From a virus, in IMG/VR virus record IMGVR_UViG_3300031578_000001: DNA of 64,000 bases; one strand, written 5' to 3'. Positions 15,886 through 21,965 of the stretch are shown one piece after another. The notes under the pieces were generated by a model. That model searched no databases and was not told where the DNA came from. It saw nothing but the letters and a program-made list of their open reading frames with translations. How positions within the stretch are numbered: the stretch's first letter is position 1; the number at the start of each line of letters is the position of its first letter. The position numbers were made by a program, and so were the translations under genes.

Positions 15886-17195
15886 TCGCAGTCGGAGAAG
15901 TCACGCAGTCCGTCCCGACGAAGCGGGCGTACTTCGTTAATTTCTACGACGGGGTCGAGAAACTGTGCTCCATCGGAAACATCGGGATCGACATACCTCT
16001 GCGGGAAGGCGACAAGGTTCTATGCGCTTTCTCTGATACACGGGTGAACAGCGGGTGGGTGATCCTCTGCCGGATCGACACGCCGAGACTCCCTAAGCCG
16101 GGCGAGGAGAATCTCGAGAAGAGCATCGAGCAACAACTCGCCGAGGAGCAGGAGAACCTGATCAAGACGGCAGTTGGCGGCTACGAGCCCGACGGCATTC
16201 CGGACTGGGGAGGCGGTTGGGACGAACCCCCGACCTACGGCGAGATCCTGGCCAAGAGTCGGACATCCCAAGGATTCTCGAAGGTGATGTCCGATGGGTC
16301 CATGATCAACTTCGTGGATCAGATCCTCCACATCGTCCTGAGCAAGCACAATAAGGCGGCGATCTTCAGGATGAAGCAACTTATTCTCGACGTGATTCCT
16401 GGATTTTTCCTGAACGTCACTCCTAAGGACCAGGTCGACGTGCAGCCAGAGGCTCCTACCGAGGCGACATCTCCGAACAAGAAGAAAGTCATAATCGAAT
16501 CCGGGATCGCTCCTGATCCAGAAGACAACCTCATCGATTTCTTCATGGAAGCCGGAATCCTGAAGCAGATGGACGACCCTGGCTACGGGAAGAGCGTCGA
16601 TACACAGGGCAAGAAGATCAAGCGAGGAGGTCGGGTAAGGATCAGGGATTTCGCCATCTTCGAGTCCGACATCGAGAACAAGGAGTTGCGACTCACGTTT
16701 CAGATCCCAGGAACGGCTCCGACAGATCTGTACCAGATCAGGGCTAACACGAGCGAGTTCGTGATCTCGTGGGGAAAACAATTCTTCGCGATCAGGGACT
16801 CCGGAATCATGATGAAGGGGGATCTTCTTGGCTTCGCCGGACCCTGGGCCATGTGGAGTAAGATGACTACCGAACCCCTTATGCACAATACGGAGCTCTC
16901 CGAAGACCAGATGCAGCCGATCTGCGAATGGAAAGAGGATGCCCCGGCTGGCGGGATTAAGTTCCTCAAAAGTGTATACTTTGGACAGAACGAGGAACCT
17001 GCGGTTCTCCAGTCGTTTATCGACAATGTGTATACGAAGGAGATGGATCTCATTCGGGACCACTTCCACTCGTATTCGCCGCCTGCGGTCGTCACTGGCA
17101 CGTCGCCGGCACTCCAGGCGGGATTACTGGTGCTCGATGCTCTTCTGGATCCGCCGCTGGTGTCAGATATTCTGAGCGGACAGATCACGATCTGA
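15882..17195 (+). CDS. putative baseplate spike/gp5-like protein with N-terminal OB-fold (437 aa)
   Basis: N-terminal G-V...P..EGDKVLCAF....WVILC pattern resembles gp5/gpV OB domains and is followed by beta-strand repeats. Confidence 0.45.
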   Translation: MIAVGEVTQSVPTKRAYFVNFYDGVEKLCSIGNIGIDIPLREGDKVLCAFSDTRVNSGWVILCRIDTPRLPKPGEENLEKSIEQQLAEEQENLIKTAVGGYEPDGIPDWGGGWDEPPTYGEILAKSRTSQGFSKVMSDGSMINFVDQILHIVLSKHNKAAIFRMKQLILDVIPGFFLNVTPKDQVDVQPEAPTEATSPNKKKVIIESGIAPDPEDNLIDFFMEAGILKQMDDPGYGKSVDTQGKKIKRGGRVRIRDFAIFESDIENKELRLTFQIPGTAPTDLYQIRANTSEFVISWGKQFFAIRDSGIMMKGDLLGFAGPWAMWSKMTTEPLMHNTELSEDQMQPICEWKEDAPAGGIKFLKSVYFGQNEEPAVLQSFIDNVYTKEMDLIRDHFHSYSPPAVVTGTSPALQAGLLVLDALLDPPLVSDILSGQITI

Positions 17196-17207
17196 CGGAG
17201 GAAGAAG

Positions 17208-19007: not shown

Positions 19008-20082
19008 CAAACTCAAGACGTTCACCAGAGCCGGACTTTTAGCGAAGTACGGGATCTCTTTTGACACTCTGGGCACGTTGCTCGGCTCTGATCTCCTCGA
19101 TGGGGAGTTCGAGCATAAAGCGGGCAAGAGCCTGTTTGCGGTGTCTCCTCAGGATGATTTCGTTTTTCGCTGCTCCAGGCTTCAGGTTGACAGCTTCCAC
19201 ACTATCGGACTGACTTTCCCTTTCCACCGTTTTCTCGTCTACCGGTTCATCAACACGCCCGTGGACGAAGTCTACGAGGAGATCTTCCAGCTCGGCCTGC
19301 TCCCGAAGATAGACGCCTTCACGAAGGACGAGATGAAGCGTCTCCATAAGAAGATCATCGGAGCCGCTCCGAGAGAACTGGCGAAGGCGTTCAAGGATCT
19401 GAGGGAACCGAAGAAGGACGAGAAGAAGAAATACGATCTCTTTCTGAAGACCTTGAACATCCAGTTGTACTATGACAAGCCGTCGCTCGTTGACGATCTA
19501 ATGTTCTACATACCCATGCGGGCGGAGCTCGAGGTCATCCTTACGACGATCTGTACCGCGGAGGAGGCGACTGAGGCGCTCTCCAAAATGATCGACGTGT
19601 CGATCCCGCTCTCGGCTATCACCACCTACAGGATCCTTCTTTACGCTTCCCATAACGTCAATCCGAGGCACATAGATATGTATTACAACCTGATCCTTCC
19701 GAGCGAGAGACTCGTAAAACGCGAGGCGATGGGTCTCACCCTCACTGAGTTCTGTGTCAAGAAGGGGGCCGATCGTGTGGTGGACACGAAGACTGTCCTT
19801 GAGGTCATCATGAGGCACGCCCAGAAGGAGGTCATGCGTCTCCATCAGATCAAGACCCCTGAAGGGCACCAGGCTGCCAGGGCCGCTCTCGATCGGCTCA
19901 TCAAGGCTCACGACAGACTCGAGGCCATGGGCGCCACGAGCGAGGAGAGCCGCGAGAATCTGGCGAAGACGTTCAAGAAGTTCAGGATCAAGAAGGTCAC
20001 GAACGCGGAGGCTGGACCCATTTTCACCATACACGACATCCAGAAGGACGGCGTCGGTGAGGTGGAGTCCGGTGGCAAATGA
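18991..20082 (+). CDS. hypothetical protein, candidate terminase small subunit (363 aa)
   Basis: Immediately upstream of and ATGA-coupled to terL; helical and basic. The call rests on position only. Confidence 0.4.
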   Translation: MVKRNSKLKTFTRAGLLAKYGISFDTLGTLLGSDLLDGEFEHKAGKSLFAVSPQDDFVFRCSRLQVDSFHTIGLTFPFHRFLVYRFINTPVDEVYEEIFQLGLLPKIDAFTKDEMKRLHKKIIGAAPRELAKAFKDLREPKKDEKKKYDLFLKTLNIQLYYDKPSLVDDLMFYIPMRAELEVILTTICTAEEATEALSKMIDVSIPLSAITTYRILLYASHNVNPRHIDMYYNLILPSERLVKREAMGLTLTEFCVKKGADRVVDTKTVLEVIMRHAQKEVMRLHQIKTPEGHQAARAALDRLIKAHDRLEAMGATSEESRENLAKTFKKFRIKKVTNAEAGPIFTIHDIQKDGVGEVESGGK

Positions 20083-21908
20083 GTTTTCAAGTCAAATATC
20101 ATGATCCGTCGACGACGGGTGTCAGGTTCAGGCCTAACAAATACTCCCTGCTTCCGGAGGCGGCTTCGCTCATCGGATGCGGTCTTGTGGATGTGGACGA
20201 GGATGCGATTGACGAAGTCACCCAAGAGACGATGGAGAGCGACGATTCCCAGATCGAAGGATGGATCTCCAATTTCGCTGAAGCTCTCGTCACCGTAAAT
20301 CGAGAGCCTCTCTCCCTCAAGGATCGCGACTACCTTCGTATGATCTACGATGTCAGGAGCGAGTACCCGAACGGATCGAGGAACACGGTGATCGTTTCCG
20401 GCCGACAGGTCGAGAAATCGACCACCATTGCCGCGAAGGTTATGACCTTGTGCATCCTCCACCCGTCGTTCTCGGCTCTGGTAGTCGAGCCCCGGGTAGA
20501 TCAGATCAAGGTCATCAGCCAGCAGCGCTTCGACCCGATGGCCCATGATTCCAAGCCCCTTCGCCAGGGATGGCTCTCAAGCAAAAACGTCTGGCAGGTA
20601 GGAATGAAGGGGTTCAACAACGGGTCCATCGTGAACTTCAAGTCCTGTTATTACTCTGCCGACCCCTCCCGTGGGATCACGGCCGGATTCCTCGCAATCG
20701 ACGAGTTGCAGGACATCATCTCGGACAACATTCCGATCCTCGAGGAGTGCCAGTCCCACCTTCAGATGGAGCCGGACCGCGTCTTCAATCTCTATACCGG
20801 GACCCCGAAGACGACATCAAACACGCTCAACCAGCACTGGAGGGATACCTGCCAATTCGAGTGGCTCGTCAAGTGCCAGTCGTGCACCAACTATAACTAC
20901 CTCGACGAGAAGGTCATCGGAAAGCACTTCTACATCTGCACTCGATGCGGGAGGCAGATTTACCCGACTAAGCACGGGCAGTGGATTGCCATGAAGCCGA
21001 GCAAGCTCGACTACAGATGGGGGTTCAGGATCTCCCAGCTGATGGTCCCGTTCATGGAGCACGCTAAGATCCTGGAGAAAATGGAGAATCCGAACATTCC
21101 TCATCGGGTATTCATGAATGAGGTGGTGGGACTCTCCTACGACGAGGGACAGCTGCTCCTGACGGAAGCCGATATATTGAAGCACTGTGAGCCCAGGCCC
21201 CAGGATACGCCCCAGAACATTGCACAGAGGACCGATATATTCATGTGCGCCGGGGTCGATCATGGGACCGGCGACTATGCCGTTTCCGGCATGGACGACG
21301 GCGGAACCCGTGGGATGAAGGCTCGGGCCAAGCCGTCGTTCACGTGACTGGCTTTCGGCGGTTTTGGAGCCGACGATCGGTTCCGAATTCTCAAGATGGA
21401 AAAGTTCCATGGTGAGATGGCCAACCTGGCACGTCAGCCGGAGTATATCGACGAATACGTCAGGAAGTACGGCGCTAAGTGGGTGATGTCAGACTACGGG
21501 TTCGGCGCCCACACGAACGCCAGACTCGTTGCGGATCACGGGTGGACACGGTCTGATGTCGAGGGAACGAGGGATCCCCTCCTGATGGAATGCGAATACT
21601 CTGGGATACAGAAGGTTCCGATCAGATGGCACAGCGGAGCCTGGAGATATATTATCAATCGTAACTTTGCCATCGAGCATACGGTTGACGGGATCAAAAG
21701 GGGGACGATCTGGTTCTTTCGTGAAGCCGAAATGAAGGAATTCATTGACGACTTCACCTCCATGTATACCGAGTACGACTTCAGGAGCAAGCACGTAAGA
21801 TACGACCACGTTCTCCCGGATGACTGTTTCCAGGCGGTTCTATACTGCTATCTGGCCGCCTTGCAGCATCGTGGGATGCTCGTCCCCACAATGGTTCCGA
21901 ACATTTGA
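20079..21908 (+). CDS. terL: terminase large subunit (lambda GpA-like), interrupted by one in-frame TGA at 21345-21347 (609 aa if read through)
   Basis: Walker A SGRQVEKST, Walker B LAIDELQD, motif III TGTPKT, CxxC..CxxC Zn site. Nuclease motif AGVDHG lies before the stop; SDYGFG and DDCFQA lie after it in the same frame. Confidence 0.88.
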
Positions 21909-21932
21909 CTTGTTTTAGGTTTAGAGTACCCT
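21905..21932 (+). promoter_or_regulatory. candidate promoter of the head-gene operon
   Basis: TTGACT-N16-TACCCT in an AT-rich gap before 21966. Confidence 0.4.
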
Positions 21933-21965
21933 TTCTATTGCAAGGCGAGTCCAGAGGAGTGAAAT

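Follow-up and report, generated by a model that had tools for sequence, protein, structure and literature searches.

Bacterial selenoprotein genes, with fdhF of Escherichia coli as the prototype, are one of the described systems with which the locus reported here can be compared, namely the gene for the large terminase subunit (terL) of an uncultured soil phage, which carries an in-frame TGA at codon 423. The gene lies in a 64,000-nt stretch of the IMG/VR record IMGVR_UViG_3300031578_000001 (the window, to which all coordinates refer); the full record containing it is linear, 120.9 kb long and 63% complete according to CheckV. Like the selenoprotein genes modelled in PMC13188914, terL shows a conserved in-frame UGA followed by C, with an open reading frame (ORF) beyond it that is under selection, and, inside the coding sequence, a stem-loop whose apical loop follows the UGA at a distance of 21-26 nt. 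Decoding appears to be site-specific in both, UGA remaining a stop elsewhere, and at a second site in terL (site 2) UGA alternates with Cys codons in relatives. The likeness has its limits: terL encodes a phage DNA-packaging enzyme and not an oxidoreductase, the first site (site 1) replaces a structural Val/Ala and never a Cys, the loop at site 2 does not have the consensus G, and the machinery would be that of the host.

The coat/A1 readthrough of phage Qbeta offers a viral parallel, in that a leaky UGA in terL would likewise lead to two proteins that share their N-terminus and are made in a set ratio, the longer of them having an additional functional domain. The terL stop, however, lies inside an enzyme domain of a double-stranded DNA phage and not at the end of a complete protein, and it comes with a conserved hairpin and, in some lineages, with a second recoded UGA. 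The nearest concept in a terminase is the terL of Streptomyces phage phiHau3, which is interrupted twice by 10-nt frame-breaking inserts and for which UUA-triggered bypassing was proposed as a sensor of the host state (PMC10732093). In both cases an essential terminase would be made full-length only by recoding, with two sites per terL, but the inserts of phiHau3 are hopped over, whereas the terL frame of the present phage has no break and its codons beyond the stop are translated; the stop itself is therefore decoded and not bypassed. The marks of translational bypassing known from T4 gene 60 and phiHau3 terL are absent, as no non-coding gap follows the TGA and residues are kept while synonymous positions vary. 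Finally, in phages with genome-wide stop reassignment (code 4 or 15), in-frame stops in late genes including the terminase have been suggested to act as a gate on late expression (Borges et al., bioRxiv 10.1101/2021.08.26.457843). An in-frame stop in the terminase is common to those phages and to the present one, but in the present record TGA is the most frequent true stop, terL is the sole affected gene in 120.9 kb, the TGA aligns with Val/Ala and Cys/Ala and not with Trp, the GC content is 56% and a suppressor tRNA was not found in the record. The genome thus does not qualify as alternatively coded in the sense used by Borges et al. Phages and terminases are unmentioned in a 2026 review of the prokaryotic selenoproteome and in the BSepDB paper (PMC13188914 being the source of the bacterial selenocysteine insertion sequence, or bSECIS, model used below), and nothing specific on terminase readthrough or phage selenoproteins was found in the library searched.

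The terL frame runs for 422 codons to the TGA at 21345-21347 and then for another 186 codons to the TGA at 21906-21908. PHROG 675 (terminase large subunit) matches terL with an E-value of 3.6e-44 and covers both pieces collinearly, with profile positions 12-383 before the TGA and 375-547 after it; together they therefore make up a single terL gene that one stop interrupts. Frame and profile matches thus confirm the single in-frame TGA that an earlier note, written from the letters of this DNA, had placed here, together with its TGA-CTG context. The ATPase domain matches PF05876 (GpA_ATPase) with an E-value of 2.8e-10, a match that clears the curated cut-off. The acidic residues of the nuclease, said in the same note to flank the stop, are indeed found on both sides of it, with D394 (in GVDHG) upstream and D472 (in SDYG) and D581/D582 (in PDD) downstream, and none of them varies among 66 homologues. 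The read-through TerL was modelled with AlphaFold from 66 aligned sequences; the model reached a mean predicted local distance difference test score (pLDDT) of 86.7, with 98 across residues 421-430, and its top Foldseek matches were T4 gp17, Sf6 gp2, D6E and HK97 TerL as well as isolated TerL nuclease domains. Strand beta1 of the nuclease is predicted to span residues 390-394 and strand beta2 to start exactly at residue 423. As the stop precedes the nuclease core in the model, termination at UGA423 would yield an intact ATPase, Zn ribbon and linker without that core. An RNase H-like nuclease in one chain with the ATPase is obtained only if the UGA is read through, and a second terL was not found in the 120.9-kb record. 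Between the two predicted strands, residues 401-414 (21279-21320) belong to a floppy loop of about 20 residues, modelled with low confidence and containing much Gly, Asp, Arg and Lys, which is missing in more distant homologues; the recoding site lies at its end. The Zn ribbon (residues 265-291, 20871-20951) is situated between the ATPase core and the linker and carries C266, C269, C287 and C290, two of which are invariant and the other two nearly so; a PDB sequence search with TerL gave LIM-type zinc fingers as sole matches, through this ribbon.

Relatives were found by protein search with the read-through translation, followed by contig retrieval and a search with the downstream piece. The protein search gave products of 422-425 aa ending exactly at ...KPSFT, along with full-length homologues of about 600 aa, and automatic gene calling splits terL into two ORFs in all relatives. 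The searches yielded eight distinct metagenomic terL sequences from different samples, four of them (the window, L005, L040 and L041) with 83-92% aa identity and four (L001, L002, L007 and L042) at about 70%. All eight carry TGA at the position of codon 423, and after it all eight frames continue through 186 codons without other lesion or frameshift, the second TGA of four members being that of site 2. An in-frame stop at the same codon in eight sequences is, by this alignment, far beyond chance. The eight form one clade (support 100/99), and its sister lineage (P0002/L009) has GCG (Ala) at the codon; the stop therefore arose once and was retained. Between the two sub-clades synonymous sites are saturated (dS > 1.8), while the ratio of nonsynonymous to synonymous substitution rates (dN/dS) amounts to 0.075-0.106 upstream of the stop and to 0.074-0.086 from the stop to the gene end (within sub-clade, where computable). 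Judged by these ratios, the frame downstream of the TGA is translated and under purifying selection. In the 16 codons after the TGA, differences among the eight sequences are mostly synonymous and in third positions (TTC/TTT, GGC/GGT/GGA, CGA/CGC/CGT), and F-G-G-F-G...R-F-R is kept. This pattern marks the 16 codons as translated sequence and not as a spacer, and it argues against a restart at the ATG at 21396 as well as against hopping. The idea of a candidate programmed recoding site, as opposed to a plain break, has therefore stood the comparison that the earlier note had set for it, with the stop conserved in 8/8 sequences. The note had also held an error or a defective genome to be equally possible; with eight lineages, no further lesions and a dN/dS of 0.07-0.09, both are now very unlikely.

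Other collections added little. Close relatives were not found in viral_contigs, the close-relative search of metagenome_contigs returned just the 92% relative and one distant fragment, and genome_contigs gave one 2.4-kb contig in a Cellvibrio metagenome-assembled genome which, at 45% identity, is of no use for naming the host. Several TerL homologues (P0003, P0008, P0017, P0045 and P0060) are about 1010-1040 aa long and contain intein and LAGLIDADG domains (PF14528, PF14890), and in L008 and L028 the terL match is split by about 1.2 kb. The terL family tolerates differing interruptions, inteins in some lineages and UGA in the present clade.

From the sequence comparison, each TGA is accompanied by its own clade-specific hairpin. 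The hairpin at site 1 begins 15-17 nt 3' of the UGA and has, with a loop CGA or CGG, a stem of 9 bp in the RNAalifold consensus and of 11 bp in the window. Its stem coincides with the strongest synonymous-site conservation windows of the whole gene (z 4.1-4.5; sequence pairs are not independent, and more weight is due to the rank than to the value). In seven of the eight TGA bearers the same place is occupied by a perfect hairpin of −11.9 to −14.1 kcal/mol; a perfect hairpin at or below −11 kcal/mol occurs in this region in 2 of 27 other homologues, and the sister lineage reaches −3.1. At site 1, TGA bearers and the other homologues cannot be told apart by whole-window folding z-scores; the specific hairpin alone distinguishes them. 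The TCGGC/GCCGA hairpin to which the earlier note had drawn attention is present in the window but is the weaker structure and not a conserved element: its inner pair is broken in L001, L002, L042 and L007 (4/8), and as it shares GCCGA with the site 1 stem the two structures are mutually exclusive. A palindrome spanning the stop, TCACGTGA, was dropped, being kept neither in L005 nor in L040.

The second in-frame TGA is found in the sub-clade of L001, L002, L007 and L042, directly after the catalytic Asp pair (PDD, stop, F) and in the context UGA-U. The codon at this position is TGT or TGC (Cys) in the window, L040, L041, L009 and L043, and residue 583 starts the last helix of the AlphaFold model. 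The 26-aa tail after the second TGA is conserved (dN/dS 0.09-0.31) and has no start codon; these 26 residues are therefore made only by decoding of the second TGA. A bulged hairpin of 14 bp starts 6 nt after this UGA and is restricted to the four TGA bearers, whose folding energies (−28.7 to −35.3 kcal/mol) and z-scores (−3.1 to −4.5) are the lowest among 31 homologues. No homologue without the TGA falls below z −1.7 in this region, the Cys version of the window being at about −1.3 to −1.7. Three substitutions within the site 2 stem preserve pairing. The apical modules of both hairpins start 17 nt after the respective UGA.

Features of the terL locus in the window
Feature	Coordinates	Strand	Remarks
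terL, whole recoded frame	20079..21908	+	609 codons and terminal stop; gpA-type ATPase, Zn ribbon, RNase H-like nuclease; Pfam PF05876 and PHROG 675
Termination product	20079..21344	+	422 aa; ATPase, Zn ribbon, linker and predicted nuclease strand beta1 only; D394 present, D472 and D581/D582 absent
In-frame TGA, codon 423	21345..21347	+	followed by CTG; first residue of predicted nuclease strand beta2
Translated codons from the TGA to the first downstream ATG	21348..21395	+	16 codons; coding-type variation among 8 sequences
Small hairpin	21355..21373	+	TCGGC 21355-21359 / GCCGA 21369-21373; 5 bp, 9-nt loop
Conserved site 1 hairpin	21363..21387	+	11 bp in the window; consensus 9 bp (21365-21373 / 21377-21385), loop CGA 21374-21376
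TGT (Cys583)	21825..21827	+	directly after the catalytic Asp pair; second in-frame TGA in four relatives
True terminal stop of terL	21906..21908	+	TGA-C; homologues end here

Which residue would fit at the two sites was read from column counts in 106 homologues. Column 423, where 101 homologues could be counted, holds V86 A6 I5 L2 F1 T1, and column 583 holds A32 S16 C13 T12 G12 F7 V6 W1, the Cys carriers including the closest relatives. By these counts small residues suit both recoded columns and Trp suits neither well; the Trp insertion considered in the earlier note is accordingly a poor fit, with Val in 86/101 homologues at column 423.

In the 120.9-kb record 49 of 103 long ORFs, the neighbours of terL included, end in TGA, which frequently forms part of an ATGA overlap and is the commonest stop. 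The statement of the earlier note that TGA is not recoded genome-wide is confirmed, and the probable recoding is specific to terL. TGA-C ends 10 of the TGA-terminated ORFs, terL included; the terminal stop of terL shares the context of the recoded one, and the context alone therefore cannot be the recoding signal. A rough screen by frame and by the pattern of GC at third codon positions found no other gene interrupted by an in-frame TGA in the 120.9 kb. Same-frame gene pairs split by a single TGA were noted at 17193-17195 of the window (region 17193-17207) and at G000 69285 on the minus strand (region 69283-69285); both are plain boundaries between genes and were rejected as recoding sites: each stop is directly followed by a GGAGG ribosome-binding site, and the genes have starts of their own. 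Over the terminal TGA of terL lies a promoter-like motif, TTGACT (21905-21910), 16 nt and TACCCT (21927-21932), followed by GAGGAG and the ATG of the next gene (21966). It is kept in all relatives with differing spacers; it escapes the consensus scan, as its −10 element matches at only 3/6 positions, and it may be a promoter for an RNA polymerase and sigma factor of the phage's own.

Taking these data together, we consider it very probable that UGA423 of terL is translated through. As to the manner, we favour decoding by a SelB/SECIS-type route that inserts selenocysteine (Sec), with a probability of roughly 0.45. Ribosomes terminating at UGA423 would leave a 422-aa protein that has the ATPase but no nuclease active site, and those decoding the codon would make the full 609-aa terminase, such that UGA423 would set the amount, and perhaps the timing, of cutting-competent TerL. 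The site 1 hairpin would act like a bacterial SECIS, host SelB with Sec-tRNA binding to the apical stem-loop that lies some 17 nt beyond the UGA, and the host machinery would insert selenocysteine, a small residue that suits both columns. The second UGA of the sub-clade may then have arisen from a Cys codon and acquired a hairpin of its own. The bSECIS model (PMC13188914) describes a loop of 3-9 nt, a stem of 4-16 bp, a G among the first two nucleotides of the loop and a distance of 16-37 nt from the UGA, at a minimum free energy of at most −7.5 kcal/mol. All four bSECIS constraints hold for the site 1 hairpin in seven of the eight sequences and at only 2.6-6.3% of codons in these genes. A hairpin for each site, the apical spacing, the alternation of Cys and UGA at site 2, an exchange classical for Cys and Sec, and the small-residue columns together suggest, at the level of sequence, a SelB-type route.

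Several observations weigh against Sec insertion. Cys never occurs at column 423 (0/101 homologues), and residue 423 occupies a buried strand position without redox role, unlike the residues of known selenoproteins. The apical loop at site 2 (UAYYU) contains no G and departs from the loop-G rule of the bSECIS model in 4/4 sequences, and the two hairpins have no common apical motif, as would be expected if one SelB served both. Double compensatory changes are absent in both stems, and part of the upper stem at site 2 is also found in homologues without TGA, that is, as a by-product of the coding sequence. Rfam has no family at either region and gave nothing at gathering scores across the whole window; at E-values up to 10 around both sites, only chance-level matches located elsewhere were obtained. 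The phage record, 63% complete, contains no tRNA-Sec, no selB and no tRNA of any kind (selA and selD were not searched), and the Sec machinery would have to be that of the host. A more far-reaching form of the proposal, which we regard as somewhat doubtful, is that TerL of this clade is a selenoprotein with a non-catalytic Sec and that the host SelB/SECIS system is borrowed purely as a gate. The cutting terminase would then be made only in cells with active Sec machinery and selenium, and most ribosomes would release the ATPase-only subunit, which may join or temper the motor.

Among the alternatives, near-cognate readthrough of the Qbeta A1 type survives best, and we retain it as a tentative but serious second possibility. 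Release factor 2 (RF2) would act poorly at UGA-C, an ordinary tRNA (Trp, Cys or Arg) would occasionally read the codon, and the hairpins would raise the rate or merely pause the ribosome, with full TerL made in a small, constant proportion to the ATPase-only product. UGA-C, which Poole et al. in 1995 are said to have found the weakest stop context in E. coli, is present at site 1 in 8/8 sequences, but the genuine terminal stop of terL has the identical context, such that this point does not discriminate. UGA is leaky, with about 6% readthrough in B. subtilis, and in-frame stops that are conserved and show low dN/dS occur widely among prokaryotic genes, mostly those of mobile elements, with no mechanism given (PMC7918605). 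Such readthrough would also agree with the position of the UGA, which in the model falls exactly at the start of the nuclease core and after a floppy loop and would be a sensible place for a two-product switch, with the 6-nt distance of the site 2 hairpin, which is the typical spacing of recoding stimulators, and with the failure to find selB or tRNA-Sec, the Sec components searched for, in the phage record. On the other hand, Trp, the usual bacterial insertion at UGA, would replace a near-invariant Val in a core strand, and two leaky stops in the sub-clade would leave a very small full-length yield. By the geometry of the mRNA channel, a hairpin 15-17 nt away is too far to touch a ribosome with the UGA in its A site, which places the site 1 hairpin beyond reach, and we know of no bacterial case in which near-cognate readthrough needs a hairpin.

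A dedicated UGA-reading tRNA, whose gene would belong to the host or to the 37% of the phage genome outside the record and which would act as a timed late gate, appears unlikely; it could be a Cys- or Gly-accepting UCA tRNA or a tRNA of unusual shape. Room for it is left by the 63% completeness of the record and by the experience with stop-recoding phages, which often carry suppressor tRNAs that were detected in only 35-40% of them (bioRxiv 10.1101/2021.08.26.457843). A general suppressor, however, would act at the 49 genuine TGA stops as well, those of late genes nearby among them, and a hairpin at each site would be needless; moreover, the GC content of 56% and TGA as the commonest stop contrast with the low-GC phages in which recoding arises (bioRxiv 10.1101/2021.08.26.457843). 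The phage suppressor tRNA suggested in the earlier note did not materialize, as neither a tRNA nor tRNA-Sec nor selB was found in the 63%-complete record. ARAGORN reported no tRNA in the 120.9 kb, and lowering its thresholds gave just hundreds of false calls. The one odd tRNA-like gene of the genome, which might speak for such a tRNA, lies outside the window (G000:C1 104570-104674, minus strand) and has normal acceptor, D and T arms with about 34 extra nt in the anticodon arm. When introns were allowed, it was parsed with the anticodon AAT and not UCA; by that parse it is not a UCA suppressor.

Still less probable is the absence of any recoding, that is, a split gene whose 422-aa ATPase assembles with a nuclease fragment restarted at the ATG at 21396 or at CTG, or else a decaying terL. 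Gene callers do annotate two ORFs in every relative, and an ATG is found 17-18 codons past the TGA in 8/8 sequences. The 16 codons ahead of this ATG nevertheless show coding-type conservation, the ATG at 21396 is not preceded by a Shine-Dalgarno sequence, and the restart product would be without the predicted strand beta2; the tail behind the second TGA is conserved in spite of having no start codon. Decay is excluded by the low dN/dS, the saturated dS and the lack of further lesions in eight lineages, and the record contains no second terL. A −1/+1 shift or a hop over the stop was rejected, the codons after the TGA being translated in frame 0; TadA-type A-to-I editing was rejected as the UACG loop context is absent, and so was an internal promoter at GTGACT, after which there is no −10 element and where the promoter scan finds nothing. 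A sequencing or assembly error in the contig, for which only the prior that metagenome contigs contain errors could be invoked, is a negligible prospect, as the contigs of three soil metagenome runs are identical over 20900-21950 at a word depth of 25-124 (these runs may be the source sample, hence not independent, and exclude a consensus slip only) and as the same TGA is found in 7 other independently assembled sequences from other samples.

In summary, sequence comparison identifies a conserved, hairpin-associated UGA recoding site in an essential phage enzyme, with a second such site in a sub-lineage. The recoding cassette is small (70 nt), and since gene callers divide terL into two 'hypothetical' ORFs, the annotation of such genes in viromes is systematically wrong. 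The terminase is essential and normally encoded by a single unbroken gene, and a stop retained for so long means that the DNA-cutting motor is made only via special decoding. If leaky termination is the true mechanism, it would be a Qbeta-style dosage switch in a tailed double-stranded DNA phage, between motor-only and motor-plus-nuclease forms. If Sec insertion is the true mechanism, TerL would be a non-redox phage selenoprotein, tying virus assembly to the selenium machinery of the host.

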